This document shows positions 692-31,600 of a stretch of 42,298 bases of DNA, piece by piece (the first letter of the stretch is position 1; each line of letters starts with the position of its first letter). Made by a program: the position numbers and the translations under genes. Source of the stretch: a virus; the IMG/VR virus record IMGVR_UViG_3300046710_000057, positions 86,339 through 128,636 of that record. The stretch is one strand, 5' to 3'. Below the pieces are notes generated by a model. The model was given only the letters and a program-made list of their open reading frames with translations. It ran no database searches and was not told where the DNA came from.

Positions 692-1156
692 ATGGCAGGA
701 ATACTCGCGCAAGCTGTAACCGGAGAGGTTGCAATTGCCAAGAACGTCACAAAGACTCCATTGCAGATTGTGGCTGCTGCGAACCATAGAATCAAGGTAT
801 CGCAGTTTGGCATTTTCTTCAAAGGTGTCGCGGTTACTGACCCACCAGTCTTAGTTAAAGTTGTTCGTCAAACTGACGCTGGAACAACTTCAGCTTTGAC
901 TCCGGTTAAGAACAACACGGAAGACGGTGAAACACTCCAAACGACTGCTAGGCATACGGCTACTGCCGAACCAACCACTACTGACGTAGTGTATTCGGCG
1001 GAAGTCCATCCTCAGTCTGGTTGGCAAGTGATATTCCCATTTGGACAAGAGATCATTGTCCCTGGTGGAACACGTCTCGGTATCAGTGTATCAACACACG
1101 CTACCATTCCTGATGGCGGACATACGTGTGTTGCGTTCATGGCGTTTGAGGAATAA
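692..1156 (+). CDS. hypothetical virion structural protein (154 aa, beta-rich)
   Basis: Strong SD AAGGAGG at ~676-682. The stop overlaps the next start (TAATG). Thr/Val-rich, beta-strand-like sequence among fibre genes. Confidence 0.6.
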   Translation: MAGILAQAVTGEVAIAKNVTKTPLQIVAAANHRIKVSQFGIFFKGVAVTDPPVLVKVVRQTDAGTTSALTPVKNNTEDGETLQTTARHTATAEPTTTDVVYSAEVHPQSGWQVIFPFGQEIIVPGGTRLGISVSTHATIPDGGHTCVAFMAFEE

Positions 1157-8897: not shown

Positions 8898-8899
8898 CT

Positions 8900-15980: not shown

Positions 15981-16057
15981 AGATTGGATGAATCTTAGTC
16001 AATCAATCCTGTTGTAGAGTATAGATAAAGTAGACTATGCAAGGAGGTTGTGCGGCA

Positions 16058-17683
16058 ATGCCTGTGATTAACAAGTCAGATGAAATGAAACGCTGGTTGA
16101 GCAAGACTCCTTCGTGGTCTAAGGACGATGCTGAAGGTGTGGTTGGTGGTGTCAAACTAGACAACAACGGTCTTCTCTATATGTCTGGGGGAGACTATGA
16201 GATTGAACAGCCGATGTTCAAGTCATTTTTGGACAACAATGGTGATTTGATTATCGAAGGGTATATGTGTTCGCAGCGAAGAACTCGCAGAGGTGAACGT
16301 TGTCGAAACTACTGCTTTGCCGGTAGTATTGATGACTATATGAAGAACCCTACGATGCTTTTCAATCACAACATGGACCAACCTGTAGGCCAAGTTCTTG
16401 ACCTTCGGATGGACGACAAAGGCACTTGGGTCCGCTGCAAGATTCTCGATGATGCAACCAAAGTGATGATTCAGGATGGTCGTCTGCGAATGTTCTCTTG
16501 GATGGGATATGTTCGCGATTGGTCTGTCGAGATGGACCCTGACCCTGCATACGCTCAAAAAGAAACGCTTTGGATAAACAAGGCCGAATTGCTTGATGTA
16601 TCCGTTGTTTCTATCGGTAACGTTCCTGATGCTCTATTCCAGATCAGCAAGGCTGCGGATGGCAAGATGGATTACTCCATTTGGTGTCCGTTTGATAAGA
16701 ACGCTACTGACGAAGAGAAGCGAATGGTATACGGATATGCCACGATCTTCGGCCAGCGAGACGCTGACGGTCATAGAATGACCAGAGAAGCGATAGAACA
16801 AGCACTTCCTGCATATGCAGAGTTCCGAAATGTGCGAGAAATGCACCAACTTAAAGCTGTTGGGACTGCTCCGATTCTTGAGATTGACGACAAAGGGCTG
16901 CGTGTAGGAGTTCATGTCTCTGAAGGAGCACAAGATGCTTGGCTGAAAGTCAAGGATGGAACCTACAAAGGGTTCTCGCTTGGCGGTATGATTCACGAAA
17001 TGTCGCCTGAGAAAGATTTGACGAGAATATCGTTTGATGAAATCTCATTTTGCGACCGACCCAAAGTTCCTGGCGCAGTTTTCTACTTGGTGAAGTGTCA
17101 GGACGGAGAACTGGTTATCTGCCAGGACGAAGGAGGTGTCACAATGGAGGAAGAGCAGATTAAACCGGAGGATTCCGAACCGGAAAAGGGTAAGAGCGTT
17201 ATCGACAAGTTCCTTGCTTTGATAAGAGGTGAGGGGCAGGAAGAGGTAGACGTTCTTGGTGAAATGGGTATCGACCTTTCAAAGTATGCTACAAGTGAAG
17301 ACGTTCAGACACTTTCTACCCAAGTTGGTGATCTGACCTCTGCTGTTGCAGAACTGATCGAAGCGGTATCCGCGAACACCGAAGAGGAACCGGAGAAGCC
17401 GGAAGGTGAAGAGGAACCGGAGAAACCGGAAGAGCCGGAGAAGCCGGAAGATGAACCGGAGAAGCCGGAAGACGAACCTGACGAGAATGTTGTTGTCCTT
17501 TTGCAGAAGATTGATACTCTTATTGCCACTGTTACGAGTCTCAGTGACAGAGTAGAATCAATCGAGAAAGCCAAAGGAGTCCGACATTCTTCTGAGGCAA
17601 CAGGCGACGAAGAAGACGAACACAAATCCGTCTTTGCAGGCGTTGTTCCTGACATTCGACATAAGACAAGACTCGGAGAATAA
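16058..17683 (+). CDS. prohead maturation protease (two tandem HK97/XkdF-type domains) fused to scaffold
   Basis: SD AAGGAGG at 16041 favours ATG 16058. Domain 1: IEGY..LFNH..PVG..FSW.G..L.DVSVV. Domain 2: VYGYA..REMH..AVG..W.KVKDG.YKGFS.GG..EISFCDRP. Acidic coiled-coil C-terminus. Confidence 0.85.
   Translation: MPVINKSDEMKRWLSKTPSWSKDDAEGVVGGVKLDNNGLLYMSGGDYEIEQPMFKSFLDNNGDLIIEGYMCSQRRTRRGERCRNYCFAGSIDDYMKNPTMLFNHNMDQPVGQVLDLRMDDKGTWVRCKILDDATKVMIQDGRLRMFSWMGYVRDWSVEMDPDPAYAQKETLWINKAELLDVSVVSIGNVPDALFQISKAADGKMDYSIWCPFDKNATDEEKRMVYGYATIFGQRDADGHRMTREAIEQALPAYAEFRNVREMHQLKAVGTAPILEIDDKGLRVGVHVSEGAQDAWLKVKDGTYKGFSLGGMIHEMSPEKDLTRISFDEISFCDRPKVPGAVFYLVKCQDGELVICQDEGGVTMEEEQIKPEDSEPEKGKSVIDKFLALIRGEGQEEVDVLGEMGIDLSKYATSEDVQTLSTQVGDLTSAVAELIEAVSANTEEEPEKPEGEEEPEKPEEPEKPEDEPEKPEDEPDENVVVLLQKIDTLIATVTSLSDRVESIEKAKGVRHSSEATGDEEDEHKSVFAGVVPDIRHKTRLGE
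17144..17683 (+). CDS. putative nested scaffolding protein (internal in-frame start, 179 aa)
   Basis: AAGGAGGTG at 17130-17138 precedes the in-frame ATG 17144 (MEEEQIK...), exactly where the second protease domain ends. Confidence 0.65.
   Translation: MEEEQIKPEDSEPEKGKSVIDKFLALIRGEGQEEVDVLGEMGIDLSKYATSEDVQTLSTQVGDLTSAVAELIEAVSANTEEEPEKPEGEEEPEKPEEPEKPEDEPEKPEDEPDENVVVLLQKIDTLIATVTSLSDRVESIEKAKGVRHSSEATGDEEDEHKSVFAGVVPDIRHKTRLGE
17381..17485 (+). repeat. PEKPE repeats (GAACCGGAGAAGCCGGAA-like) in the scaffold
   Basis: EEEPEKPEGEEEPEKPEEPEKPEDEPEKPEDEPDE. Confidence 0.9.
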
Positions 17684-17715: not shown

Positions 17716-18708
17716 GTGGAAATCAATGAGCAACTAAACAAGGCCATTATGGTAGCGACTCTCTCTCCTGGTGGTCGGTTGAACACTGAACAGGCTCGGA
17801 CCTTTATCGACCTGACGGTTGATAGTACGGCACTCATCAAGATGTGTCGTATCATGAGGCCGACCAACGTTCAGGGTGAGTTCGGTAGGTTGCTGTTTGG
17901 CGGAGTTGTAACCGAAGGCGCTAATGAGAACGTTGACAGTGGGAATCTTGTCGTACCGACTCACAGCAAGATCGAATACGCTACCAAGAAACTGCGGTCT
18001 GCTATGGACATCACTCGTGAAACGCTCGAAGAGAACATCGAGGGCGAAGGTTACCAGGATACAGTTATGAACTCCCTGGGAACTAGAATCGGCGTTGACC
18101 TTGAGCTTCTGGCTATTCTGGGCGACACAGTGGCTTACGCTGCTGACGACTCGAATACCGGTAGACTGCTCAAGCACAACAACGGTTGGTTCAAACTGGC
18201 GATTAGTGGCGATGGTACTAATCCTGGTGGACACACCGTTGACTGCGCTGGCGCTACGATCTCGAAGACCATCTTCTCGAAGATGATTCGTGCTCTTCCG
18301 GTTCAGTTCAAACAGAATAGGGCTGCGCTGCGAATCTTCGCCTCGCCGTCCATCATTCAGGACTACCGTGATAACCTGGCGAACAGGCTGACCTCACTCG
18401 GCGACCAGTCTCTCGTTGGTGCTGACCCTCTCAGAGTGTTCGGCGTTCCGATTGTAGAGATTCCGCTCATCCCTGAAGACATGGATTCGTTGGACGGTAG
18501 CGATACATGGGGCGACGCCTCATTTATCTGGCTGTCCATTCCGGCGAACTTCGTCCACGTTATCACCAGGGAGATCGACGTTTACTGGGAGTACAAACCA
18601 AGGAAGGATGCTCTCGAAGCGACGGTCTATACTAGGGTCGATGACATTCTTGAGAACGAGGATGCTATCGTTACCGGTTATGACCTGCGCGTTGCTGGCG
18701 CATCCTAA
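17716..18708 (+). CDS. major capsid protein (HK97 fold, PBSX XkdG/YqbE-like)
   Basis: GTG start with TAGGAGGTGA. Motifs GGRLNTEQARTFID, DIT.ETLEENIEG, DLELLAI.GD and GVPIV.IPLIPED. Follows the protease/scaffold and ends ...VAGAS. Confidence 0.92.
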   Translation: MEINEQLNKAIMVATLSPGGRLNTEQARTFIDLTVDSTALIKMCRIMRPTNVQGEFGRLLFGGVVTEGANENVDSGNLVVPTHSKIEYATKKLRSAMDITRETLEENIEGEGYQDTVMNSLGTRIGVDLELLAILGDTVAYAADDSNTGRLLKHNNGWFKLAISGDGTNPGGHTVDCAGATISKTIFSKMIRALPVQFKQNRAALRIFASPSIIQDYRDNLANRLTSLGDQSLVGADPLRVFGVPIVEIPLIPEDMDSLDGSDTWGDASFIWLSIPANFVHVITREIDVYWEYKPRKDALEATVYTRVDDILENEDAIVTGYDLRVAGAS

Positions 18709-18726
18709 TCGAGATAACGTCGTGAT

Positions 18727-18748
18727 AGGAGGACCATTTTGAGTCCCA
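18727..18748 (+). promoter_or_regulatory. shared 22-nt translation-initiation element, copy 1 (AGGAGGACCA-TTTT-GAGTCCCA)
   Basis: 18 of 22 nt are identical to 26452-26473. Contains the SD and TTG start of the GT9 gene, and GGAC/GTCC can pair. Confidence 0.6.
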
Positions 18749-20004
18749 CAGGTCGTTTTCTTACACTTCGCGGCGGTATCACATACAGGTTGGACGACAA
18801 CGTGTTCCACAAAGATATTCCTGTGCCAATAAACGATGATCGAATCTTTTATCGTTTAATACACACCGGAGTATTCGAGGAAACACCCCCTCTATGTTAT
18901 TACCACATCCGGCATTCGGACCCCACACAGACAAATCCTCGCATCATTCAGATGAGTAACGGTGATTTTCTCCGCACATCTCATGACACTCCCATCAGAA
19001 TGTCACGTTGGCAGTGGCAACAAGTTCGGTATCATCAGTATCTTGAGGTTATGCCACCATTGGAGGTTATCAAGTATCTAGGGAAAGAGGATTTTAGTCT
19101 GATGATCGTCCGAGATATGGGCGTAGGGGATGTAATCATTTGCACAGACCTTGCGTATAATCTCAAGAGGGCGTTTCCTCACTCTAAGATCACGTTTGCT
19201 ACGTCTGAACGATACAAGTCTCTCTTCAATGATCTTGGCTTCGTTGACGAGGTAGTAACTATTGGGACTGTAGACCCTGTTGATTGGGACATCTCTGTCA
19301 ACCTTTGTGGATACTGTGAGCAGTATCCTGCCTGTGCGCATTATCACCGTGCCGATCTACTCGGTCAGGCGTTTGGAGAGTTCCCTTGGAGTGAGGAACG
19401 AGGCGTCCACTTGACATTGAGCATTGAAGAGGAGAAATGGTTTGAGGCATTCAACTCTGAATACAATCCAGAATCGAAGCCGGTCGTTGCGTTACAGCCG
19501 TTTGGAAGCAGTGCTCACCGATCTATGCAGCTTGAATCTATGATTGGCCTTTCTCGGTGGCTCATTGGCGAAGGATACCACGTCTACATCTATGGTCAGA
19601 GTCCAGCCCTTGATCTTGTTAAGTCAAATAAAGATTTGACGATTCTTAATGAATGTCTGGAGTTACGAGAGATATTGGCTATCATCAAAAACAGCGAGTT
19701 TGTCGTAACTCCAGATTCATCAGGGTATCATATTGCGGCAGCATTTGACGTTCCTTCGTTTCCTGCCTTTACAACTATTCATGAACAGGTGCGCGTTCGA
19801 GACTACAATCGTTGTTATCCAATCAGGATAACTGATCTGAACTGTTCTCCTTGTTGGGATAGCCCTTGTGGGACCAAGGATACTCCTTGTGTCACATATC
19901 TGACGGCAGAACGTCTGATTGAGCACATTCAGAAATACAGGTCACAAGGTTATCCTTACATCCGGCAACCTGAGTACCATCCTGCCATAAAGGTGTTGAA
20001 ATGA
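18739..20004 (+). CDS. GT9 (heptosyltransferase-like, GT-B) glycosyltransferase with N-terminal YqbF-like domain(s)
   Basis: RDMGVGDVI, FP.SKIT, VALQP.GS..HR, L.LRE..AII, TPDSS.YHIAAAF.VP and C.PC...C. Has an extra ~110-aa N-terminus. Confidence 0.85.
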   Translation: MSPTGRFLTLRGGITYRLDDNVFHKDIPVPINDDRIFYRLIHTGVFEETPPLCYYHIRHSDPTQTNPRIIQMSNGDFLRTSHDTPIRMSRWQWQQVRYHQYLEVMPPLEVIKYLGKEDFSLMIVRDMGVGDVIICTDLAYNLKRAFPHSKITFATSERYKSLFNDLGFVDEVVTIGTVDPVDWDISVNLCGYCEQYPACAHYHRADLLGQAFGEFPWSEERGVHLTLSIEEEKWFEAFNSEYNPESKPVVALQPFGSSAHRSMQLESMIGLSRWLIGEGYHVYIYGQSPALDLVKSNKDLTILNECLELREILAIIKNSEFVVTPDSSGYHIAAAFDVPSFPAFTTIHEQVRVRDYNRCYPIRITDLNCSPCWDSPCGTKDTPCVTYLTAERLIEHIQKYRSQGYPYIRQPEYHPAIKVLK

Positions 20005-20585
20005 CATTGCACAAGTTTGATGCGCTCATTATCAATAGAAACGTAACATTCGACGCTTGTCGTGTGGTCAAAAGTTTCATTGATTATGGGATTGATATAG
20101 CGTGTGTCGCTGGTATAGGCACGGCTGACCCAGGATTTCTTGTTCGAGATGCCGCTAGAGATTGTGGCAAGAATCTCTTGATTATACCAGGCGCAGTGTT
20201 AGTTGCGAGCAAGATTAACCGCGTCTTGATTATAGGCGCTGTTGACAAAGTTGTAGTTCCTAACAACACTCCACTGAAGGAGATTATAGACATAGCCCAC
20301 GCCAACAATGGGATAGTCGTGGCAATGAATCCAACCAGCATCATAGATGAGGAGAGTTGGACTCTCATTGACGCCTCAATCGTGTATGACAACGCAACGT
20401 TGGCTTGTTCGATTACTCAGGCGTCTTTTGCTATTACAGGTGATCGTATAGATAAAATCGGCAATTCGTATACGACGTTATATAGCAAGAACGTAAGATC
20501 GTACGAAGAGATGCAAAAGGAAATAAACAACTCGCCTGAATTGTTTGTTCCTTTCGTCAACAACGAAAGATTGGTCGCAAAGTAA
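20001..20585 (+). CDS. degenerate PHP-fold protein lacking metal ligands
   Basis: The scaffold pattern GID.A.V...LLIIPG...L.EIID.AH..NGIVVA.NP matches PHP phosphoesterases, but the His/Asp/Glu ligands are absent. Confidence 0.5.
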   Translation: MTLHKFDALIINRNVTFDACRVVKSFIDYGIDIACVAGIGTADPGFLVRDAARDCGKNLLIIPGAVLVASKINRVLIIGAVDKVVVPNNTPLKEIIDIAHANNGIVVAMNPTSIIDEESWTLIDASIVYDNATLACSITQASFAITGDRIDKIGNSYTTLYSKNVRSYEEMQKEINNSPELFVPFVNNERLVAK

Positions 20586-20587
20586 CA

Positions 20588-22405
20588 ATGGTCTATCAAA
20601 GTCATACTGGAATCAAAGCGTTACACGTCATAGAAACGTTTTGCATGGGTGGTGCTCAACGCATAGCGGTATCTATCTGTGCTGGGTTTCCTGGCTCGGC
20701 TGTTTGTTACTATCAAGCATACAATACTCCACCTTTGGCTTTCCCAGATTTGCTGGACAAGTATTGCATCAAGTGTGATCACATTCCACGATTTGAAGAT
20801 ATGGTAAGAAAGTTCAAATATGAACAATTTGACATACTTCATATTCATTGGTGTGGAGACGGCATAACAACAGATCGACTGACAAACTGGGATACCATCA
20901 GGGCAGAAAGAATCCCTTACATCATTTCGTCTCACTCGAACACCGTGTTCCCTTACAAACACTTGAACCTTATTTGTGAAGCCGAATCACAGTATAAAAT
21001 GCAGAAGTGTGAAACGAAGTTGATATACAACGGATTAGACGACTCTGATGCTTTCGTTTATGACCGAGAATACCCACAAAAAGACAAAATAGTCATCGGT
21101 TTTGTCTCAAGACTGGACGATAAGTTGGGGGTAAAAGCGCCGGTAAAAATGTGTGACGCCGTATCAACGATGAACAAGGCTTTCAAGTTTGTTGTGATAG
21201 GAGATGGTCTGCGCAGATCGTCGTTCGTTGATGTTTTCAAACAACGAAAGGTTGAGTTTGAAATGCTTGGAAACAGAGACGATATAAGTGAATGTCTGAA
21301 AGACCTGGACATCTTTTTGTATCCCACTCAAGCAGACAACTTCCCAACTGTGGTAACAGAAGCTATGTTGTCTGGCTTACCGATAGTCGCTCCGCCAATA
21401 GGAGATATACCATTCATGTTGGCTGATGGCAGAGGATATGCTATTGAATGGGAAGAGATGCCAGACGTGATGAAAGTGTTGTCAGGCAATCATAAGAAAA
21501 GACAGATTGTAGGTAATCGAGCAAAACAATTTGCCATGAGTGGATTTTCACACGAAACAATGATCAAATCATACGAAGAAGAGTATGTGAAGATCATTCA
21601 TGACACCAACAAGGAGTATTACAGTATGTCTGACGACAACGATTGCCTTACAGAACCAACGGTTTCTGTTGTTGTGCCGACGTACCGAAGGCCAAATGAG
21701 GCATATCGGTGCGTGCAATATTTGCTGAAGCAAGATTTGCCTGTCGAGATTGTTGTTGTCAACGATGGCGACTGTGAATCAGATTACAGCAAGGTCAAGG
21801 CACTGCCGGTGAAATATATTCAATTACAATCGAATCACGGCTTGAGTGCCGCACGCAATATAGGAATCAAGGCAGCAAAAGGCCAATACATCGGATTCTG
21901 TGATGACGACGACAGATGGTATCCGTCATTTGCCAGAAGACTGGCATTGGAACTCAAAAGGAAAGGCGCGTCGGTAGTTTATGGTGTTGGATTTGGGGTT
22001 CGTGGAACACAGGTTGTTGATAAGATAGACCTCAGAATGTTCGATGAACCGTTTGATGGCAAGGAGTTGTATTGCAGAAACTTCATTGCCATGCCTGCAA
22101 CGATGATTCGTAAGTCTGTTTTGGTCGAAGTTGGTGGTTTTGACGAAGCGATGCACCAAAATGGAATGTCAGGACCAGAAGACTTAGAGTTATGGATTCG
22201 GTTAATGCTTGCCGGACACAAGTTTGTAAGGTGTGCGTTCATCGGTCTTGTATACAACATGGGCGAAGAAAGGTTTACAACAACTACTGTCAACAACGGT
22301 GCTATGGCAAAGGGGATGCGGTATATCGCAGACAAACATAAAGTCGAATTAGGATATACCGATTCCAAAGGCAAAAACTTCTGCGAGGTAGACAACGATG
22401 AATGA
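20588..22405 (+). CDS. GT4-GT2 fused glycosyltransferase
   Basis: GT4: MGGAQR, GFVSRL..K, VIGDG, DIFLYP...DNFPTVVTEAM.SGLPIV. GT2: VSVVVPTY.R, VVNDG, GLSAARN.GI, FCDDDD, EDLELWIRL. Confidence 0.9.
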   Translation: MVYQSHTGIKALHVIETFCMGGAQRIAVSICAGFPGSAVCYYQAYNTPPLAFPDLLDKYCIKCDHIPRFEDMVRKFKYEQFDILHIHWCGDGITTDRLTNWDTIRAERIPYIISSHSNTVFPYKHLNLICEAESQYKMQKCETKLIYNGLDDSDAFVYDREYPQKDKIVIGFVSRLDDKLGVKAPVKMCDAVSTMNKAFKFVVIGDGLRRSSFVDVFKQRKVEFEMLGNRDDISECLKDLDIFLYPTQADNFPTVVTEAMLSGLPIVAPPIGDIPFMLADGRGYAIEWEEMPDVMKVLSGNHKKRQIVGNRAKQFAMSGFSHETMIKSYEEEYVKIIHDTNKEYYSMSDDNDCLTEPTVSVVVPTYRRPNEAYRCVQYLLKQDLPVEIVVVNDGDCESDYSKVKALPVKYIQLQSNHGLSAARNIGIKAAKGQYIGFCDDDDRWYPSFARRLALELKRKGASVVYGVGFGVRGTQVVDKIDLRMFDEPFDGKELYCRNFIAMPATMIRKSVLVEVGGFDEAMHQNGMSGPEDLELWIRLMLAGHKFVRCAFIGLVYNMGEERFTTTTVNNGAMAKGMRYIADKHKVELGYTDSKGKNFCEVDNDE

Positions 22406-23483
22406 CAATGCGCTTTCTGAATTGTTAGAACGAGAACCAGCAAGCATTGATTTGAAGGCTGAGACGTATCTAACCGGCAAAAAGGTTCTAGTGACTGGAG
22501 CAGGCGGAAGCGTCGGTAGCTATCTGTGCAAGATTATAGCGTATGCTCATCCTGCGCTGCTTATCCTGGTAGGACATGGCGAAGATTCGATACATCGTAT
22601 CTATGGCGATTTGCGTGCTCAATTTCCTACTGTAGAGATCGAGTTTGCTATTGCCAGCGTCGCACACGAATACCAGATGATGCAACTGTTTGAGCGGTAT
22701 AAGCCTGACTACGTGTTCCATGCGGCTGCACACAAGCATGTTCCTTTGATGGAAAACAATGAGCAAGAGGCAGTCAGGAACAACGTGATAGGGACACACA
22801 ATGTCGCTCAGGCAAGTGGGTATGTTGGGGTAAGGCAAATGGTCCTTATTTCGACGGATAAGGCTGTAGACCCATATTGCATCATGGGAATGACCAAACT
22901 GTTGGGCGAAGAAACGATGCGAATAATGAGCAAATATTGGCCGAACACTGCTTTCACTGCGGTTCGTTTTGGCAATGTTCTTGGTAGCACAGGTAGTGTA
23001 ATACCAATATTCGCCAAACAAATCGAATCAGGTGGACCAGTGACGGTAACTCATCCAGATATGACTCGTTACTTCATGACGCCTACTGAAGCTGTTTCGT
23101 TGGTGTTACAGGCTGGAGGATTCGGCACATCTGGGGAACTGTATCTGCTGGATATGGGAGAGCCATTCAGAATTACACGGTTGGCAGAGAACATGATCAA
23201 ATCCTATGGTCTTGAACCGTATACCGGCATTAGTATTGTCTTTTCAGGGGTAAGACCTGGAGAGAAGCTGACTGAGACTTTGATAGCAAACAACGAAGAG
23301 TTCAAACCTACATCAGACAAGCGTATACTGCTCGTTGTCAAACCTGACATGTTCGATAACGATGAGTTCTCTAAGATTCTTCATCGCCTTCGATACAAGG
23401 CCGACTGCACGACCGGCGCAGAGACACGAGAGGCGTTGTGCGAAGTTGTCGAGTCGATTACTCAACGGCGTATAATGAAGTAG
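22398..23483 (+). CDS. CapD/PglF-like UDP-N-acetylhexosamine 4,6-dehydratase (soluble catalytic domain only)
   Basis: VLVTGAGGSVGS, FHAAAHKHVPLME, STDKAV, MGMTK, VRFGNVLGS.GSVIP, MTRYFMT and RPGEKL.E. Confidence 0.92.
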   Translation: MNDNALSELLEREPASIDLKAETYLTGKKVLVTGAGGSVGSYLCKIIAYAHPALLILVGHGEDSIHRIYGDLRAQFPTVEIEFAIASVAHEYQMMQLFERYKPDYVFHAAAHKHVPLMENNEQEAVRNNVIGTHNVAQASGYVGVRQMVLISTDKAVDPYCIMGMTKLLGEETMRIMSKYWPNTAFTAVRFGNVLGSTGSVIPIFAKQIESGGPVTVTHPDMTRYFMTPTEAVSLVLQAGGFGTSGELYLLDMGEPFRITRLAENMIKSYGLEPYTGISIVFSGVRPGEKLTETLIANNEEFKPTSDKRILLVVKPDMFDNDEFSKILHRLRYKADCTTGAETREALCEVVESITQRRIMK

Positions 23484-23496
23484 GAGGTGAGCCGTA

Positions 23497-24156
23497 ATGT
23501 ATTGTACAGTCAAAAACATCACTGATCTTCTTGAGGGCGTAGACGAGTACGACCCTCTTGTTTGGACGGACGCTGCTGTTGCCAGTCTAGCTGACGATAT
23601 AGCCCAACCTTACTTTGAGGAAGTCCTTTGTGGCGGTCGAAGTTTTGGCAACGCTGAGTATACTGAACATCTGGATGGAACAGGAGACTGCTATCTTCGT
23701 TTGAGCAACTATCCGATTACCACGGTCAGCGCGTTGACGATAGACGGTGTGGTGGTTGATCTGACAGACCCAGCCGAAGAAGTGTTTATCTACAAGACTC
23801 GTATCGCCAGAAAGACCAATTTCCCATCAGGGATGCAGAACGTCGTAATCACCTACGAAGCTGGCTATGACACGATTCCCAAAAGCGTTGCTTCAGCTAT
23901 TGCTCTGTTGTGTGCTATGCACATATCTCGTGTCTGTGGCAGTGGTGGAGGGGCGATTGCAAGTGGCATCAGTGCTGGTCCTATTGCTCTAAGAGAGGCT
24001 TTCTCGGCTGCCGGTAAGTATTCGGACAAGATTTCCGACTGGAACAAGATCGTTCTCAAGACGGCACGTATCTATAATGGAACTAAGCCGATTGGTCAGC
24101 CTCGGAAGAATCAACCAGGCAAGTACTACGAACCGAGAACGGATAGGTGGTTGTAA
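23497..24156 (+). CDS. head-tail adaptor/connector
   Basis: YCTV..I start, E..DG.G...L.L..YPI..V, F..G.QNV.ITY.AGY..IP. SD AGGAGGTGA and position after the head genes. Confidence 0.8.
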   Translation: MYCTVKNITDLLEGVDEYDPLVWTDAAVASLADDIAQPYFEEVLCGGRSFGNAEYTEHLDGTGDCYLRLSNYPITTVSALTIDGVVVDLTDPAEEVFIYKTRIARKTNFPSGMQNVVITYEAGYDTIPKSVASAIALLCAMHISRVCGSGGGAIASGISAGPIALREAFSAAGKYSDKISDWNKIVLKTARIYNGTKPIGQPRKNQPGKYYEPRTDRWL

Positions 24157-24626
24157 TGACTGCTAACCCTGGGACATACTGGAAACGCAAGTTCAGAGAC
24201 AAGCTGAAGCCACTTATGTATTCAGTGCGCCTCTACCGGTATTCTTATGAGCCAACACACTGTCCTGGTGGATGGGGTAATGATCGTGACGAGTTCGACG
24301 TTGAAGCTGATGTCGCTTATCACATTGACAATCCGACTGCGACTGTTTGCCGTAACGGATTGCTGGGCGACATCGAGATACTGGACATCAAAGGATTCTA
24401 TTTCAGTAGCATGACATCTTCTCAACTGAAGATGCTGGCTATAGACACTTTGGATGTCAACGAAGGCGTGTTTGTGATCGACGGATACATCAACATGGAT
24501 TGGCCGGTAGTCATTGAGTATCCTGCTGACACTTTCCATTCGGTGATCTTTTGTCGTGACTTGGTTCTGGCTGACGTAGCGATTGCTCGGTATGCCAAGC
24601 TCAAGAAGACTGAGTATACGCCGTAA
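24156..24626 (+). CDS. putative head-closure (stopper) protein
   Basis: TAATG coupling with the adaptor gene, and position in the neck cluster. Confidence 0.5.
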   Translation: MTANPGTYWKRKFRDKLKPLMYSVRLYRYSYEPTHCPGGWGNDRDEFDVEADVAYHIDNPTATVCRNGLLGDIEILDIKGFYFSSMTSSQLKMLAIDTLDVNEGVFVIDGYINMDWPVVIEYPADTFHSVIFCRDLVLADVAIARYAKLKKTEYTP

Positions 24627-25120
24627 TGCAAACAAACGACTTTCGACAATTCACAGATCGGTTCAGAAAGTTCGGAGTCAACTTTCAACGAGAGTTCCAA
24701 CAGGAACTTGATGTGATGTGGGCCGACTTTGAAACAGATTTAAGAGCGGCGATTTACGAGGCTGCTCCTGATCAGATCAAAGCGTTTGCTACTGACCCAT
24801 CGGCACTTGAGCTAGTTAGGACCGAAACTGGTTGTCAGTTGAAACTTAACGCGCATGTGAAGCCAGGGCGTATATTGATAGTGTGGGAGTTGGGAGATAT
24901 AAGGTCTGTTCCTTATGAAATCACTCCTCGATTCAAAAAGGCTCTGATGTTCATTGGCAGAGACGGAGAGAAGGTCTTTGCTGCTCGTGTTGTCATTAAG
25001 ACGGCAGTGCCGCCACATCGGTTCATTAGATTGGCTTGGCGGAGAGTAACGAAGAAGTACCGTCAAAGGATAAACAGGGCTGTAGCGAATGCTGCTAAAA
25101 AGGCAGGCGAACAACTGTGA
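24626..25120 (+). CDS. putative neck/tail-completion protein (HK97 gp10-like)
   Basis: Basic protein with YEITPR.KKAL.F....VFA.RV...PP..FIR.A motif, in the neck position. Confidence 0.65.
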   Translation: MQTNDFRQFTDRFRKFGVNFQREFQQELDVMWADFETDLRAAIYEAAPDQIKAFATDPSALELVRTETGCQLKLNAHVKPGRILIVWELGDIRSVPYEITPRFKKALMFIGRDGEKVFAARVVIKTAVPPHRFIRLAWRRVTKKYRQRINRAVANAAKKAGEQL

Positions 25121-25614
25121 GTGACAACTTCATCAATGAGTTTCAGAGTGCGCTCAAGGCTTATCTTGAGTCCTACTTTAGCCTGAAGAATGCTGATGTT
25201 CAGGTAGACATTGGCTGGCCTAACTATACTGACAAACTGCCACTTGTTAAGCCGCACGTTACAGTCTCTATAGATGCTGACGTTACAATGGGTTCTCCTG
25301 GCTTTGGTGATCTCCTTGATGATGAAGAAACAACTGGAGCCATAGCAGAGTTTTCGGTATTTGTTGACGTGTGGACATCACGCGGAGGGTCTAACAAACC
25401 CAGCAAAGCTGGCGGCAAGACTGGTGCATCTAAAATCCTGGCTCTCGTCCTCAAGGCGTTCTCTAAGGACGACAAACTATGTTACGATGCGTGCTCGATG
25501 ATTGATGAGATCAAAAACTGTGAGAAGCGATACTCACGCAATCCTGCGTGGTTCGATGAAGCGGACATATTCCAAGAAAATGTCGAACTCACAGTGAGAG
25601 TGGTAGTTCAATAA
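25117..25614 (+). CDS. putative tail terminator
   Basis: GTGA overlap, P.VTV...F.VDVW pattern, immediately before the tail tube gene. Confidence 0.6.
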   Translation: MSDNFINEFQSALKAYLESYFSLKNADVQVDIGWPNYTDKLPLVKPHVTVSIDADVTMGSPGFGDLLDDEETTGAIAEFSVFVDVWTSRGGSNKPSKAGGKTGASKILALVLKAFSKDDKLCYDACSMIDEIKNCEKRYSRNPAWFDEADIFQENVELTVRVVVQ

Positions 25615-25690
25615 TCGTGCATTGTTTTCTGATCTCCACAGAGTAGGAGTATAAAGAAGAAGAAGACCTTGATAGGAGGTGACTTTGTAA

Positions 25691-26440
25691 ATGGATACTT
25701 CTGCGAGACAACTTGACAAAGGTCGGCGTATGCGAGTGTACGTCGGTGACCAGGGACCGATTGCTGGCGTTCAGGCGTTTGAAGTAACAGCTACCGAAGC
25801 TCTGAACAGATTCGGCGAGTACGATTCTGAAGAGCAGGTGATTGACGTTCAGATTCCTGAAACTAACGGCTTTGTCGAAATGTTCGACTCGGAACGAGTA
25901 GAGTTCTACAAGGCTCTGCTTGGTGAGACGGATGCTGCGAAGATTGTTGACCTGCGCATCGGTGACTTCGGTACACCGTGGATTGCGGTCAACGTCTGGA
26001 ACAAGGCGAAGACGAAATACGTGAAGGCGGCTTTCGTTAAGAGACCTACGTTCAACAACCATCCGTATCCGACCAACCTGAACGACTCGGTTATTCTGCG
26101 TTGGGAGTTTGCGGCCTCGACATTCGTCAAACTGCCGCATCACGCTTGCGCAATCGACACGTTCACTCTCGAAGAGGGTGCGAACCAAGTTCTGTCACTC
26201 TCGAAGTCTGCTGTTCAGCTTCGTGATGGGAGTTACGTTCTCGGCGCTGTAGAGAAGGTTAGTCTTGGTGGTACTCCTGCGAAATACGAGTATCTCGAAC
26301 TGACCGTCTCTGGTTCTACTTCTTCGGCCTGCACGGTTGCAAGAGGAGACGGAACCAGCCTCGGCGACGGCATCGTTCTGGTCTATTACGCCTATGTTTC
26401 GACAAGCGAGACAGCGGAATGGCCTGGGCAGACCGTCTAA
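25691..26440 (+). CDS. major tail (tube) protein
   Basis: Strong SD TAGGAGGTGA and codon usage resembling the capsid gene. Lies between the terminator and the chaperone/TMP genes, with no sheath gene present. Confidence 0.7.
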   Translation: MDTSARQLDKGRRMRVYVGDQGPIAGVQAFEVTATEALNRFGEYDSEEQVIDVQIPETNGFVEMFDSERVEFYKALLGETDAAKIVDLRIGDFGTPWIAVNVWNKAKTKYVKAAFVKRPTFNNHPYPTNLNDSVILRWEFAASTFVKLPHHACAIDTFTLEEGANQVLSLSKSAVQLRDGSYVLGAVEKVSLGGTPAKYEYLELTVSGSTSSACTVARGDGTSLGDGIVLVYYAYVSTSETAEWPGQTV

Positions 26441-26451
26441 TCGGAATCAAA

Positions 26452-26473
26452 AGGAGGACCACAAGGAGTCCCA
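26452..26473 (+). promoter_or_regulatory. shared 22-nt translation-initiation element, copy 2 (AGGAGGACCA-CAAG-GAGTCCCA)
   Basis: 18 of 22 nt are identical to 18727-18748. Starts 11 nt after the tail-tube stop and ends 2 nt before ATG 26476. Confidence 0.6.
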
Positions 26474-26475
26474 TT

Positions 26476-27429
26476 ATGATTACCCTTACAACTCCGATTT
26501 CTCAATCTAAGTCATACTGTTTCCATGACTACGCTCGTGGAATCTTCAACCTCGACTACCCCAAAGATCAACTCTACATTCTTTTCGTCGTTGATATGTT
26601 CGGCGAACAGGACGTTATGAAGAAGATCAAGTTATTCGAGGAAAGATGGCCTTATCCTGACAACGTTTTCTGTCTCCAGACATCAATCCAAGGCAACAAC
26701 ATTGTCAATTCTGATGCTGTCGATTGGAAGAAGAGAGCACAGATTGCTGCCGATCTTAGAGGAATGGCATTCGCCTATGCGCGTGGAAGACTAAGCGATA
26801 TGACGCATATCTTCTCAGTAGGCAGTGACATCATTCTTGCACCAGACAGTCTTCAAGACCTGCTCCTATTGAATGAGTGCCTCGGTTGTCATAGCGATTA
26901 CCCCAACCATCTGGTTTCTGGCCTGTATATGGCTCGTGGTAAACGATTACCATTATCGCTCCATTATGACGAGAAGACTCGTGATTGGGGTTATGATGAC
27001 ATCGACATTGAACGAGTAGACTCATTCAGGGCAGACTGGACTGGAATGGACGTAATGCTCATTGAACAGGCGGTCTACGAGACGGTTGACTTTGGCAAGT
27101 ATGACTTCAACAAGTACGGTCTCGGAGAAGATGGCTATTTCTGTATAGAGGCGCGGAACAAGGCGAATGCAGACCTTTGGATTCATTCTGGAGTTCGACC
27201 TATTCACGCACATAGTACCGGAGAGGGTATAGCCGCACGGCCACTTCCTCATCTGCGCATTGATCTGACCTGCCCATACTGCGGTTGGAAGTCAAGGATG
27301 GGGAAGGTCTATAAAGACGTTGAGGTTGCTTGTGGTGATTGCAAGAAGGTTTTCTGGGCCGACCCATTCTGGGCGGAGACTGCTTACTATGAATCCAAAA
27401 TCCCTGGCTACGGCCAACCACTAAAATAA
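26476..27429 (+). CDS. GT-A (GT2-like) glycosyltransferase with C-terminal zinc ribbon
   Basis: TPI....Y, LDYPK, HIFSVGSDII, VSGLY, TGMDVMLI..V, GEDGYFC and H motifs, then CPYCG...CGDC. SD AAGGAG at 26463 supports ATG 26476. Confidence 0.75.
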   Translation: MITLTTPISQSKSYCFHDYARGIFNLDYPKDQLYILFVVDMFGEQDVMKKIKLFEERWPYPDNVFCLQTSIQGNNIVNSDAVDWKKRAQIAADLRGMAFAYARGRLSDMTHIFSVGSDIILAPDSLQDLLLLNECLGCHSDYPNHLVSGLYMARGKRLPLSLHYDEKTRDWGYDDIDIERVDSFRADWTGMDVMLIEQAVYETVDFGKYDFNKYGLGEDGYFCIEARNKANADLWIHSGVRPIHAHSTGEGIAARPLPHLRIDLTCPYCGWKSRMGKVYKDVEVACGDCKKVFWADPFWAETAYYESKIPGYGQPLK

Positions 27430-27438
27430 CGGAGGTTC

Positions 27439-28323
27439 GTGATGTCGAAAGACAAGGAAACCCAAGAAGAAAGTAAGGCAACGGAGGAATTAAAGATTCC
27501 TAAAGTCAGAGACGCTGACGAAGTAACACCTGAAGCGGCTGATGAGATCGTTGAGGAGGTTCTTGACTATCAGGGTCGGCGAGCGGTTCCACTTCCTGAT
27601 GGAAGAACACTCTACATTCGGCTGCCTGACTCCGGCGAAGACCGAACTGCGGAAGAGATATACTCGAAGTGTCTCTTCAAATACAAGAAGGACGGAGTTC
27701 CGTTCATTGCCGGAATTGCTCAAATGGTTCTTGCCGAAGTTACTCATCCTGAAACATTCGGCAAAAGAGAGCGTCGAGTAATCAACGAGAAGGCTATCGA
27801 AGAGATAGTCGAGAAGCATAGAATAGAAATAGAGAGATGGGAAAAGGCGAAGAAGAAAGACCCTGAAATCGAAATCCCAGCAGAGCCGGATGTCCCTGAG
27901 CCTATCGTTGACGAGGGCAGTCCTTCTCTCAAGGAGATTCTGGACGGTCAAGAAAGTGGTCCGTTCTCCAAGACCAATCTGATCATGGCGTGTTTGGCTA
28001 ACACTGAATATGCCAACCTGGTTGTCCACTCAGCCGAATATATGGCTGGCCGTGAGCGGAGCCGGTACGTTGTCAGTCAGATCGTTGAGACTGTCAAGAC
28101 GGTCGAAGATGAGGGAGAAGCCAAGAGGCTTGAGTTTACATCGCTTTGGAAGCGACCGAAGGACCAGGACGCTGCTGAATCTATGAAGAGGATGCAGACT
28201 GAGAAGCCTGAGATCATTGGGTATCTTGAAGGGATGTATATTACATTCCAGCAAGAGGTACTCCAAAAGGATTTTTTGCAAAAGTTGTCAAGCGTTCAGA
28301 GCGATGGCGAATCCAAAAAATAA
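27439..28323 (+). CDS. tail assembly chaperone (short form)
   Basis: Acidic protein upstream of the TMP, with slippery T-TTT-TTG near its 3' end. Start is GTG 27439 or ATG 27442. Confidence 0.75.
   Translation: MMSKDKETQEESKATEELKIPKVRDADEVTPEAADEIVEEVLDYQGRRAVPLPDGRTLYIRLPDSGEDRTAEEIYSKCLFKYKKDGVPFIAGIAQMVLAEVTHPETFGKRERRVINEKAIEEIVEKHRIEIERWEKAKKKDPEIEIPAEPDVPEPIVDEGSPSLKEILDGQESGPFSKTNLIMACLANTEYANLVVHSAEYMAGRERSRYVVSQIVETVKTVEDEGEAKRLEFTSLWKRPKDQDAAESMKRMQTEKPEIIGYLEGMYITFQQEVLQKDFLQKLSSVQSDGESKK
28272..28278 (+). other. -1 programmed ribosomal frameshift heptamer T TTT TTG
   Basis: In-frame GAT TTT TTG. The -1 frame is open from here to 28631. Confidence 0.75.
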
Positions 28324-28631
28324 TTGCCAAGCGGCTTGACACTAATCCTTTGGACCCAAAGGTCAACAAACTCTATCACGACAAGTATGCTCGGTCTCTA
28401 GTCCTTATGGATTATCTCTACGATTCCTGGTTGGAGAAGAAGAGATTCGAGAGAGAGCAAGCGAGACTCGGTGGTAAACGAGTTGTTTCTTCATTCTCAG
28501 TTAATGAGGGTGACGACTTCGATGAGATGTTCGGTGGCGAAGAAAACGAACGCGATGACAATTTTGGTGTTTCAGACAACGCCAAAGAAATGGCGAAACG
28601 TTATGGCGTAGACGTAGGGGCTGATCTCTAA
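28275..28631 (+). CDS. tail assembly chaperone frameshift extension (G-T-like long form)
   Basis: The -1 frame reads FAKVVKRSERWRIQKIIAKRLDTNPLDPKVNKLY... and contains the listed 28350-28631 ORF, which lacks its own SD. Confidence 0.7.
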   Translation, partial: FAKVVKRSERWRIQKIIAKRLDTNPLDPKVNKLYHDKYARSLVLMDYLYDSWLEKKRFEREQARLGGKRVVSSFSVNEGDDFDEMFGGEENERDDNFGVSDNAKEMAKRYGVDVGADL

Positions 28632-31600
28632 TGTCGATGATGGACGATCTTACTTGGCGAATTGGTGTAATTCTTGATGCAAAACTCAAGAACATAGACT
28701 CAATTCGCCAAGAGTTTCAAGTAGCTGAAAAGGCTGCAACTAACCTGGAGGAACGAGTCAAGCAGGTTAGTGCCGCAGTTGACCGTCTGCACAGCCAAGG
28801 TTTTGGCGCTCAAAAGGGAATCAGCGAGGTCAGTTCAGCTATAGGCGTCCTCAAAAGCTACGGTGCTGAGATTCAGAACATTACGCAGCAACATAAAGTT
28901 GCCGAAGCATCCGCAAACCAACTCTTCAGCAAAATCACAGCAATGCAAAGTCGAGCAGGGAGTCTGACTGAGCGGCTTGCTGGCAAGCAAAACGAACAAC
29001 AGGTTGCTCTCGGAAACGCCAATGTCGCTAGAACACAAGGCGCATCTGCGGCTGTTATTGCTGGGTATCAAGTTGAAGCTGCTGCTGCTGGTCGATCTGC
29101 TGGCGGTCTTACGACGGCACTCAACAAACAAGAACAGCAGTTGGTTCGGTTGCGCCAAGAATATGCGCAAGTCGAAGGTCAAGTTGCTACATACAAAGAC
29201 CAAATGAAACAGGTCGAGAATGCAACAAAGACGATGAACTACGCTCCGTCTATTGTTACGTCGCCGCTCACCGGTTTGATAACAGACAATGAGAAAAAAA
29301 TCCCCATTCTCAGAAACCAGATGCGTAACATTGATGTAATCATAAAGAGATCACAAGCCAATGTTGCATCTGGCGCACTGAGTCAAGTCAATCCTGCTCT
29401 GTATGCCAGCAGAGCTAAAGCTGAAAACCAAATAGGTTTACTTCAGTTTGGCAAGAAATACAGTATGCCTGACCCTATGGCTCTTGTTCCTGCGAGCCAT
29501 CAAAATGCACCGTTCGGTCAGGATGTTGCTGCTGCTGCCACTCAAAGTCGTATGATCGACCAACAGATCGCTCAATTAAAGCGATTCGAGACACAGCAGA
29601 CTACTATCGGTATGCAGATGAGGCGTATTGGGAGTGACATTGGGTTCACAGCAATGCGGCTAAGTATGGTTACTGCTGGCATTGGAGCATTCTTCTACAC
29701 TGCTGCTACGCAAGCTGCCAACTTCGAGAAGAAAATGGCAGAAGTGAACTCCATCACGGACTATACGACGGAAGGATTCGCACAGGCCAAGACTGAAGTG
29801 ATGGACCTGTTTACGAACCTGCCTGTTAAGAACATTGACGACCTGACAAACGGCCTATACAACTTGATGTCGTCTGGCGTTAAAGCTGGCGACTCGATGA
29901 AGGTTCTTGAGTTGTCAGCGAAAGCCGCAATTGCTGGGCAGACAGACCTCGATACAGCATCTAAGGCTCTGATAGGAACGTTGAACGCCTTTGCTCTGCC
30001 GATGTCGGCAGCGAGCGATGTCCTCGATAAGCAATTCAAACTCGTCCAACTTGGCATTGGGCGTTACAAAGACTTCCAGCCAGTATTAGGCAAACTTGAA
30101 GTTACTGCCAAAGCAGCCGGTCAGTCTATTGCGACAACTTACGGCACTCTGGCTCAGTTGACTAGAATGGGATTTACACCACGTATGGGCGCGATGTCCG
30201 AACAGAGATTTATGGCTGATATGATCTCTAAGCGTGGCAAGATCAAAACTGAACTTGGTATTGATACTGTCGATGTCAACACCGGTAGGCCAAAAGAACT
30301 ATTGGTCTTCATGGCGGAATTGCAGAAGAGAGTCCAAGAGGGCAAAGTAAGTCTCGAAGGCATACAAAAAGCCCTTGGCAACATGAATAGCGTCAGATTC
30401 GTGCAAGCATTCTTGAGTCAGTTTGGTCAGTTCAAGGAACTCATCAACGAAACTGCAAACTCGGCAGGCGCTTGGGAGAGCGCATATAAGAAGGCCGTTG
30501 ATAATACGGCTGATCGTATACAGTTGTTAAAGAACCAATGGAATGCTGCAATGATTACTATAGGTGGTTCACCAGCAGTCAAGGCGGCAACTCTTGGTCT
30601 CATTACTGGTCTCAAGAGTGCTGTTGATTTCATGCGATCTGGCAACGGTGCGATTGCTAATTTTGCGGCGTCTATTCTTCTGATTACTGGTGGCTTTACA
30701 GGTTTAAGTGCGGCTGTGCTTACTGGGACTGCTGGCCTAGCACGATTCGTTGGTATGTTTGCTTCTGTTAAAGGTGCTGCTGCTACTCTTCAGATAGCCA
30801 AAATCGCATTTGGTCTCAGCAGTGTAGTCGGCGTTACAGATGTCGTGACAGGCAAAGTAATGGCAGCTAATGCAGGTCTGCAAGGTCTCGGACTGACTGC
30901 TGCTGGTACTGCTGGTGCTGTGAGTATGCTTAGAGTTGGCTTGGTAGCACTTGGCATAGCTTTGGTTGCATATGGCGTTAAGGCGTTCATTGACTATCTA
31001 ACGTCAGGCACGCGAGAAGCACTCAAACAGGCTGATGCTACAGCAGTATTGGCAGACAAGATACTCGCTCTCGGAGTAGTAACCGATAAATCTAGTGCGT
31101 CGTTCAAATCACAACAAGATGCAATGAACGATCTACGCAAGACGGTTCCTGAATTGGTTGCCCTCTATGACAGCGGAGCACTCTCTATGACAGAGTTTGG
31201 TCAGCGAGCAAAAGCTGCTGCTGCCGAAATGAAGCAACTTGCCAAAGAGAGACAATGGGGTGCTCCAGGTAGCAATGGAGATTGGAGAAACTCGATTGAA
31301 GGTTGGTGGAACCGAGGTATGTTGGGAGCACAAATGGAAGGGATTCCTGCTCCTGCGCCTGCTGAATTGCCAGAGACCGGCACAATATCGAAGGCAACTG
31401 CAAAGATTGGCATTCATGACACTCTGGTAGAGACCTACAAAGGGTTGAAGGATGCTGGAGATATACTCGGCAAAGCTCAAGACTCGTGGCAAAAAGCGTT
31501 AGAGAAGTCTGGCGGAAATACAAAAGCAGCCAAAGAATTGATGCAAAAAGAGGCTGACAAAGTACAGGACGAGATAAATGCTGTAAAAAACCGCATGATG

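Follow-up and report, generated by a model that had tools for sequence, protein, structure and literature searches.

A candidate virion glycosylation system in the late operon of an uncultured peat phage

To our knowledge, glycosylation of the phage particle has been shown only for a few mycobacteriophages, in which it alters antibody recognition, and protein-heptosyltransferase chemistry is known only from pathogen adhesins. The BAHT enzymes (TibC/AAH) responsible for the latter form a dodecameric ring, take ADP-heptose as the donor, and O-heptosylate Ser of protein. TibC requires its N-terminal beta-barrel (residues 1 to 97) for activity, uses Asp110 as the catalytic base, and has a Cys4 iron finger (C339, C342, C358, and C370) inserted in its C-lobe (PMC4358343). 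In mycobacteriophages, the C-termini of capsid and tail tube proteins are reported to be glycosylated (Freeman et al. 2023, Cell Host Microbe 31:1216, via PMC11256854, PMC11600133, and PMC12619734), and in chloroviruses and giant viruses, virus-encoded cytoplasmic glycosyltransferases (GTs) glycosylate the capsid (PMC9614988 and PMC7019647). Here we describe a candidate system of GTs and sugar-nucleotide enzymes behind the capsid gene and a presumed tail tube gene of an uncultured phage from peat. It lies in the window, i.e., the last 42.3 kb (42,298 nucleotides) of the 128,636-bp IMG/VR record IMGVR_UViG_3300046710_000057, which has a CheckV completeness of 100%.

An earlier note on this DNA had proposed separate GTs building a sugar coat on capsid and tail, by comparison with mycobacteriophages said to carry such GTs in the structural operon. 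The comparison fails on this last point, as PMC11256854 places the GTs of Che8-type phages near the right genome end and not in the structural operon. Nevertheless, the best-supported explanation for the locus, with a probability of roughly 0.55, is that a cytoplasmic, late-expressed system O-glycosylates the particle proteins of the phage itself.

Enzymes behind the capsid and presumed tube genes

The system consists of the following genes and elements (window coordinates).

17716-18708, plus strand: major capsid protein (MCP), 330 aa, candidate acceptor; phrog_1623 (1.2e-72), 35% identity to Streptomyces phage MCPs
18726-18748, plus strand: hairpin (GGAC, a loop of 7 to 8 nt, GUCC) containing the TTG start of the GT9 gene
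18739-20004, plus strand: GT9, a GT-B glycosyltransferase of 421 aa, candidate initiating protein O-glycosyl(heptosyl)transferase; PF01075, AlphaFold2 (AF2) model, and VIA structure comparison
20001-20585, plus strand: PHP-fold protein, 194 aa; ESM Atlas model and alignment with the L008 and L007 copies
20588-22405, plus strand: fusion of GT4 (GT-B, retaining type) and GT2 (GT-A, inverting type), 605 aa; Pfam
22398-23483, plus strand: soluble PglF-type UDP-GlcNAc 4,6-dehydratase, 361 aa; PF02719 and PDB match
23497-24156, plus strand: head-tail adaptor, the conserved right border of the variable cassette; phrog_442 (1.7e-14)
25691-26440, plus strand: presumed tail tube protein, 249 aa; gene order
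26451-26473, plus strand: second copy of the hairpin, just upstream of the GT-A start
26476-27429, plus strand: GT-A glycosyltransferase with a C-terminal CxxC...CxxC zinc ribbon, 317 aa, candidate tail-directed GT
27439-28323, plus strand: presumed tail assembly chaperone, the right border of the tail GT; gene order before a 3,906-aa open reading frame (ORF)

Family and fold matches bear out the tight packing of a GT9, a PHP-like protein, a GT4-GT2 fusion, and a CapD-like dehydratase between the capsid and adaptor genes, with junctions of ≤8 nt (a 4-nt overlap, a 2-nt gap, and an 8-nt overlap) and gaps of 30 and 13 nt at the ends of the cassette. The operon position of the genes is directly observed, as is the solubility of their products: five GT domains were counted in the late operon, and a simple hydropathy scan of the ORFs found the GTs and the dehydratase free of transmembrane (TM)-like segments. 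The same scan of all ORFs listed nothing resembling a Wzx/Wzy-type polytopic protein, in agreement with the earlier note, and a pathway needing a flippase or a polymerase is thus not phage encoded. No intergenic terminator was found on the plus strand of the late operon.

The assignment of the first enzyme to GT9 is secure. PF01075 matches at 33.2 bits (cut-off, 22; E value, 4.3e-8) and is present in all 10 homologues, and a profile search of the PDB matches 3tov and WaaF; neither that search nor phmmer reached TibC. The AF2 model (pLDDT of 83.5, from an 11-sequence alignment) gave VIA Z scores of 24.9 for 3TOV (a Veillonella GT9), 22.7 for WaaF, 22.5 for TibC, and ∼21 for WaaC, and of ≤14 for other GT-B folds. 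TibC gave the longest alignment (301 to 304 residues, covering model residues 51 to 407 and starting from TibC residue 11), while the alignments with WaaC and WaaF begin at model residue 119 and that with 3TOV begins at residue 104. Residues 1 to 115 form an extra beta-rich N-terminal domain, with nine strands within residues 6 to 89 of the model. A YqbF-like identity of this domain was considered and is not supported (of five sequences, one gave a Pfam match, with an E value of 0.12 and 12.6 bits where the cut-off is 27).

In the catalytic core, D131 of the invariant M-G-x-G-D aligns with “lGDvi” of 3tov and “vGDmm” of WaaF; this candidate base sits 13 residues into the core (12 in TibC), and the C-lobe motif P325-D-S-S-G-Y-H331 is also invariant. 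Four cysteines (C359, C369, C372, and C377) are invariant in 11 GT9 sequences, and their cluster begins 241 residues into the core, as in TibC. Judged from the model, GT9 therefore appears to resemble the protein heptosyltransferase TibC in its N-terminal beta domain and four-Cys insert, neither of which is covered by the alignments with lipopolysaccharide (LPS) enzymes. GT9 would work like a BAHT enzyme yet is not classed as one, as its sequence matches only LPS heptosyltransferase models. The subfamily was absent from 185,579 species genomes and was found only on phage-type contigs.

The second GT behind a structural gene has no Pfam match and only a marginal match to phrog_1574, and its assignment comes from its fold. 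The AF2 model (pLDDT of 83) matched COLGALT1, LH3, TarP, and Mnn9 in Foldseek at 1e-11 to 1e-8; the best PDB neighbors are protein O-glycosyltransferases (collagen COLGALT1, at 1e-11, and LH3), and STIV A197, mimivirus R699, and many viral GT-A proteins are also among the fold matches. D118, E218-D219, and H244 are invariant in nine GT-A sequences down to 19% identity, and the zinc-ribbon cysteines are invariant among the four closest homologues. The gene starts at the ATG at 26476 and not at 26419, as the homologues begin MI(A/T).. and a Shine-Dalgarno (SD) sequence lies just upstream, and there is consequently no overlap with the tube gene. With this corrected start, the GT reported between tube and chaperone genes stands as a GT-A fold enzyme, whereas the names of its two neighbors come from gene order. 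The chaperone-position gene gave no homology match and is labeled by position; its homologues adjoin the 3′ side of the GT-A gene in L008, L016, and L017. The presumed tube protein has an S/T-rich stretch in its C-terminal 45 residues and ends in WPGQTV, with relatives ending in WPGATS and WPGATT.

Distant GT-A kin (phrog_1574) lie zero to one gene after an MCP gene (phrog_267) in three unrelated phage contigs, where they encode small proteins of this family of “unknown function” (L018, 5800-6390; L019, 5788-6516; L020, 5884-6528). This suggests that phrog_1574 is a capsid-linked glycosyltransferase family. Separately, L016 and L017 are the two ends of the 123,839-bp contig IMGVR_UViG_3300037067_004608, in which the block of tube, GT-A, chaperone, and tape-measure genes occurs twice with 83% DNA identity over 7.5 kb; this probably represents two strains joined in assembly and not a true duplication.

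The remaining cassette enzymes could act after the first sugar. The GT4-GT2 fusion (PF00534, 4e-16; PF13692, 1e-16; PF00535, 1e-26) is the sole GT2/GT4 of the genome and is the candidate chain-extending enzyme. The 194-aa protein preceding it has no Pfam or other family match; a single source, its ESM Atlas model (pTM of 0.83), gave TM scores of 0.81 to PHP phosphoesterases and 0.79 to PHP-GT4 fusion proteins of Actinomycetota. The metal-binding His motifs of PHP enzymes (N-terminal HxH and C-terminal D-x-H) are missing, as the sequence opens with MTLHKFDALI.. and contains ..ITGDRID, and DPHVH is retained in the L007 copy alone. One marginal hydrophobic stretch reads as buried strands. From these residues, it is probably a noncatalytic partner of the GT4-GT2 enzyme. 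The dehydratase matches PF02719 (341 bits, 5e-102), and its best PDB match is Campylobacter jejuni PglF (5BJU; 9e-66, 226 bits, residues 3 to 337); it is far nearer to PglF than to FnlA, CapE, or PseB and falls under the PseB and FnlA equivalog cut-offs. The “vtGaGGsvGs” NAD motif and the “iSTDKAv” stretch, the STDK of which we take to be the catalytic Thr-Asp-Lys of PglF, are conserved in the alignment. The enzyme is predicted to make UDP-4-keto-6-deoxy-GlcNAc as an accessory to the GTs, and the 6-deoxy-HexNAc component proposed in the earlier note is in this respect upheld at the level of a precursor enzyme.

A heptose link is likewise borne out, by GT9 and by gmhA- and hddA-like genes that flank ruvC at 9.8 to 12 kb of the genome. 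The GmhA-like protein has a SIS_2 domain (best model, gmhA TIGR00441, 114 bits), and the HddA-like protein is a GHMP kinase (best model, HddA, 139 bits), both under the equivalog cut-off. The two genes recur in both complete relatives (46 to 48% identity), where they lie apart. That the heptose genes are conserved is an observation on these genomes, and GT9, GmhA, and HddA form a conserved core around which the outer enzymes vary. Outside the window, at genome positions 8309 to 9839, the gmhA-ruvC-hddA block is joined back-to-back by genes for an NT5C-type HAD phosphatase and a calcineurin-like phosphoesterase; as a guess, the HAD phosphatase could stand in for the missing GmhB.

Relatives, the variable cassette, and the hairpin

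The nearest cultured relatives by MCP are ∼133-kb Streptomyces siphophages, e.g., LukeCage (35% identity), which have no GTs between the MCP and tail genes, and megablast of the region against phage records gave no match. Comparison was made within a clade of nine contigs (this genome, L007/L024, L008, L009/L026, L012/L027, L014, L025, L028, and L029), with identities to the proteins of the query genome of 66 to 71% for the MCP and 47 to 51% for GT9. Synteny and cassette variability are plainly visible in this clade. The MCP gene is followed by GT9 in nine of nine contigs, interrupted in L007, L012, and L014 by nothing more than an HNH endonuclease gene or what is left of one. The order tube candidate, GT-A, and chaperone is kept in all three genomes that cover that region. 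The genes between GT9 and the conserved adaptor, homologues of which border the cassettes of L008 and L014, belong to three unrelated sets.

Set A (this genome, L008, L025, and L007): PHP-like protein and GT4-GT2, with a PglF-type gene in this genome only
Set B (L009 and L029): B12-radical-SAM protein, methyltransferase, GT4, and unknowns
Set C (L014 and L028): GT2, GT4, 226-aa unknown, pyruvyltransferase, GT4, 300-aa unknown, methyltransferase protein, B12-radical-SAM protein, and FAD/NAD enzyme

The cassette of L012 starts in the same way as set C. By analogy, the part of the cassette after GT9 may vary like an O-antigen locus, and in this genome GC falls to 0.42 to 0.44 over 20 to 22 kb, as expected for an exchanged segment. 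HNH_3 homing-endonuclease genes or remnants occur at the MCP/GT9, GT9/PHP, and adaptor junctions of relatives.

L007: 6042-6539
L008: 12266-12739 and 15848-16387
L012: 3539-4042 and 6975-7181
L025: 2312-2833

The first codons of GT9 (TTG AGT CCC ACA) resemble those of the L007 HNH gene (ATG ATC CCC ACA), and the start region of GT9 looks as if it had been left behind by a deleted HNH gene.

The earlier note had proposed co-regulation of the GTs by a shared RNA element, seen as a 22-nt repeat. The repeat is an 18/22 match and the visible part of a short hairpin of the form GA-(4 bp)-C-loop(4-8)-(4 bp)-CA, the 5′ arm of which overlaps the SD sequence GGAGG. Both here and in relatives, it stands 15 to 35 nt past the stop codons of the MCP and tube genes; relatives also have it at the GT-A/chaperone junction and at the HNH start of L007, with the HNH start codon in the loop. 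The stem is supported by compensatory pairs at position 3 (A:U, G:C, U:A, and G:U) and position 4 (C:G, U:A, and A:U). A script count over 13 instances gave 52/52 paired positions compared with 20 to 34 of 52 when the 3′ arm was slid, although 3 of the 13 (those at the GT-A/chaperone junction) came from a scan requiring pairing and the 52/52 is partly by construction. A loose form of the pattern is not enriched genome-wide (13 found, 12.6 expected), and its significance rests on position and covariation rather than on count; Rfam lists no family within 15 to 29 kb. In several relatives an AUG lies 6 to 10 nt past the hairpin, ∼20 nt from the SD sequence, and folding would bring the two together. 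A split initiation region of a similar kind is found in T4 genes 25 and 38. In our reading, the hairpin acts at translation start and keeps the enzymes behind the very highly expressed structural genes at a low, coupled level of expression. The RNA element is therefore real and covarying, with a 4-bp stem, but in relatives it stands before HNH and chaperone genes as well and is not specific to glycosylation.

The late block is a single co-directional run on the plus strand from the terminase gene to the tape-measure-like ORF, with the following genes upstream of the MCP gene.

11524-13248, plus strand: large terminase
13220-15214, plus strand: portal
16037-17683, plus strand: prohead protease/scaffold

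After the adaptor come three small ORFs, the 249-aa ORF, the tail GT, two chaperone-position ORFs, and the 3,906-aa tape-measure-like ORF. The last is one ORF at 28631 to 40351 with hydrophobic segments at residues 674 to 680 and 760 to 772. As tail length is ∼1.5 Å per tape-measure residue, it would specify a tail of >0.5 μm unless much of the protein is not ruler. An imperfect tandem repeat of ∼21 to 27 nt at 17374 to 17476 encodes a (P)EEPEKPE-type acidic run in the C-terminal region of the protease/scaffold. Upstream of the terminase, a 1,327-aa ORF (1156 to 5139) has several hydrophobic segments and no Pfam match.

Virion glycosylation weighed against other explanations

If the phage glycosylates its own particle, GT9 would be translated from the late mRNA directly after the capsid protein and would place the first sugar (heptose or HexNAc) on capsid Ser/Thr, possibly in the invariant C-terminal AGA(S/T). 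Chain extension would fall to the GT4-GT2 fusion and its degenerate PHP-fold partner, the PglF-type dehydratase would provide a precursor of 6-deoxy-HexNAc, and the GmhA- and HddA-like enzymes of the phage would raise the supply of heptose precursor, with the host covering the remaining steps. The GT-A/zinc-ribbon enzyme would glycosylate the S/T-rich tail of the presumed tube protein. Swapping of the cassette after GT9 among relatives would let the outer glycan vary like an O-antigen. The families and folds of the enzymes are observed, while we infer which proteins are the acceptors, which sugars are added, in what order the enzymes act, and what purpose the glycan serves (shielding or adhesion).

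The same enzymes might instead alter a glycan of the host envelope during infection, whether the LPS inner core, the capsule, or an S-layer/surface glycoprotein. This could prevent superinfection, for instance, or release progeny from debris that carries receptors, and the operon position would then give late timing only. The nearest sequence models of GT9 are indeed LPS heptosyltransferases I and II, the best solved GT9 structures include the soluble peripheral enzymes WaaF and WaaC, polysaccharide loci typically contain GT2, GT4, and PglF-type enzymes, and partial pathways must plug into host sugar metabolism. We nevertheless consider this unlikely: no phage transferase, flippase, or polymerase embedded in the membrane was detected by the hydropathy scan, a search of 185,579 species genomes gave no bacterial member of the GT9 subfamily, the N-domain and Cys4 insert of GT9 are not covered by LPS-enzyme alignments, and timing alone does not need strict adjacency to the MCP and tube genes across 47 to 71% identity. 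Nor is it probable, though it carries a little weight, that the GTs act on other phage proteins in place of, or in addition to, the capsid and tube subunits (candidates are tail fibers or receptor-binding proteins, the scaffold, a decoration protein, and the 3,906-aa tape-measure-like protein). Each of the two GT genes comes after the gene of one of the two most abundant subunits in every relative, and the known precedent modifies exactly the capsid and the tube (PMC12619734); on the other side, adjacency is all that ties the GTs to a given acceptor, and the MCP lacks an S/T-rich tag.

Two further explanations are much less probable. The cassette might be a moron-like passenger that does nothing for the particle and is kept at a permissive hotspot for insertions, where HNH endonucleases also collect; the HNH genes and remnants at the same junctions in relatives, the fall in GC (0.42 to 0.44 over 20 to 22 kb), and the highly variable content would fit. 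However, every relative retains GT9 and GT-A, and their catalytic residues are invariant, a pattern that points to purifying selection on function and makes a mere passenger quite improbable. Phage GTs often act on DNA, according to PMC12619734 and bioRxiv 10.1101/2023.12.21.572611, and the set could in principle hypermodify phage DNA by T4-like glucosylation or with 5hmC/5hmU glycans. We rejected this reading as hardly credible: neither a thymidylate-synthase-type (ThyA-type) hydroxymethylase nor a Tet/JBP dioxygenase is encoded in the genome, the GTs belong to the head-tail operon and not to the replication genes, and a set of GT9, GT4-GT2, and PglF is unlike known DNA glycosylation.

The terminal residue of the capsid protein has less bearing on the question than first appeared. 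The MCP does end in Ser, as the earlier note observed (tail, RVAGAS), and the clade has RVAGAS in seven contigs and RIAGAT in two, so that a hydroxyl is kept; the MCP of LukeCage, a genome without GTs, ends in ..KIAA. A metagenome scan, however, yielded a freshwater sister clade of 74 loci (L030 to L103; MCP identity, 33 to 36%) with a LukeCage-like gene order, useful as a control group without GTs, in which the downstream genes match none of the GT queries; a Pfam scan of one of these loci (L031, plus one ORF of L097) gave no GT domain from MCP to tail. Because the MCP ends in Ser in 70 of the 74 loci of this GT-less clade, mostly as ..KVAS, the terminal Ser is weak evidence: it appears compatible with virion glycosylation but does not argue for it, and the expectation that it would track the cassette in relatives does not discriminate.

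Together with the freshwater clade, several points weigh against glycosylation of the particle by this system. The MCP has no poly-S/T or S/T-rich tag. The tube protein is presumed from its position, as Pfam, PHROGs, the PDB profile search, phage tblastn, and BLASTP against the LukeCage major tail protein gave no match. NCBIfam lists no BAHT model for GT9 at an E value of ≤0.01, only LPS heptosyltransferases I, II, and III; the solved GT9 structures lie within ∼2 to 4 Z units of one another against the GT9 model; and the Cys spacing of GT9 (C-x9-C-x2-C-x4-C) differs from that of TibC (C-x2-C-x15-C-x11-C). The dehydratase is present in this genome only and is missing from the closest cassette (L008). 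Sugar supply is incomplete: the genome has no NTP_transferase, NTP_transf_3, or GmhB and no DegT aminotransferase to follow the PglF-type step, and it has no further sugar SDR, the only other SDR being at 39.9 to 40.7 kb of the genome. A complete phage-encoded heptose or bacillosamine pathway is thereby ruled out, and lacking a nucleotidyltransferase, GmhB, and an aminotransferase, the phage depends on its host. HddA-type kinases lead to GDP-alpha-heptose, whereas characterized GT9 enzymes use ADP-beta-heptose; the heptose may be used instead by the GT4 or GT2 domain. Modification of virion proteins is deduced from genes, and the pairing of GT9 with the capsid and of GT-A with the tail is drawn from their adjacency. 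Of the separate capsid- and tail-directed GTs and multisugar coat first proposed, the operon linkage, kept in every relative, therefore stands, and the assignment of acceptors is a reading of adjacency.

Glycosylation of the phage's own particle proteins remains the explanation we prefer. A more specific version of it is possible but tentative, and we would sooner doubt it than rely on it: a TibC-like GT9 with a Cys4 finger would O-heptosylate an HK97-type capsid, with supply by GmhA and HddA, a swappable, serotype-like cassette, and GT-A acting on the tube. If true, this would be the first protein heptosylation beyond autotransporter adhesins and the first phage virion glycosylation outside the Actinobacteria. 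More broadly, if the phage does glycosylate its particle, sugar coating of virions would occur in an unrelated, uncultured soil/peat phage lineage and could make use of a protein-heptosyltransferase-like enzyme, and diversification of the glycan by cassette exchange would point to selection on the virion surface (adsorption, defense evasion, or stability).

Comparison with described glycosylation systems

Like the mycobacteriophages Che8, Rita, Corndog, and Myrna, the peat phage encodes soluble GTs, for which capsid and tube C-termini are here the proposed acceptors, and methyltransferases accompany the GTs in relatives L009 and L014. It belongs to another lineage, however, with a host that is possibly a member of the Armatimonadota rather than of the Actinobacteria. 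Further, its GTs lie directly behind each structural gene, it has a hypervariable cassette, its core enzyme is GT9/TibC-like and is accompanied by phage heptose genes, and its system is known from genes alone.

TibC/AAH (PDB 4RAP and 4RB4) and GT9 share a WaaC/WaaF-related GT-B core. The N-terminal beta domain of the GT9 model and its four-Cys insert, which has the same relative position in the C-lobe, may correspond to the beta-barrel and metal finger of TibC. Each is a cytoplasmic enzyme, and Ser O-modification of a secreted or assembled protein is proposed for GT9 as for TibC/AAH. They differ in that identity in the structural alignment is 12%, with no BAHT match at the sequence level, and in that GT9 would use an HK97-type capsid protein in place of a beta-helix autotransporter. 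With WaaC/WaaF and 3TOV, GT9 shares PF01075, the GxGD motif with the catalytic Asp, and the C-lobe nucleotide-sugar motif P-D-S-S-G-x-H; unlike them, it has ∼115 extra N-terminal residues, a Cys cluster, a phage-restricted subfamily, and a capsid gene as its neighbor.

The dehydratase has the STDK stretch and NAD-binding glycine motif of C. jejuni PglF (WlaL), an enzyme of the pgl protein-glycosylation pathway. Native PglF, CapD, and WbpM have an N-terminal membrane domain, whereas the phage enzyme is the soluble catalytic domain alone and has no PglE/PglD-type follow-up enzymes in the phage. Chloroviruses and giant viruses resemble this phage in having their own soluble GTs and sugar-nucleotide enzymes for the major capsid protein, but their hosts are eukaryotic and their capsid fold and glycan chemistry are unrelated, so that the likeness is functional, plus shared GT-A folds. 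Distinctive of the peat phage among these systems are a conserved core of GT9 and heptose genes, an outer cassette that varies three ways, and a separate GT-A enzyme behind the presumed tube gene.

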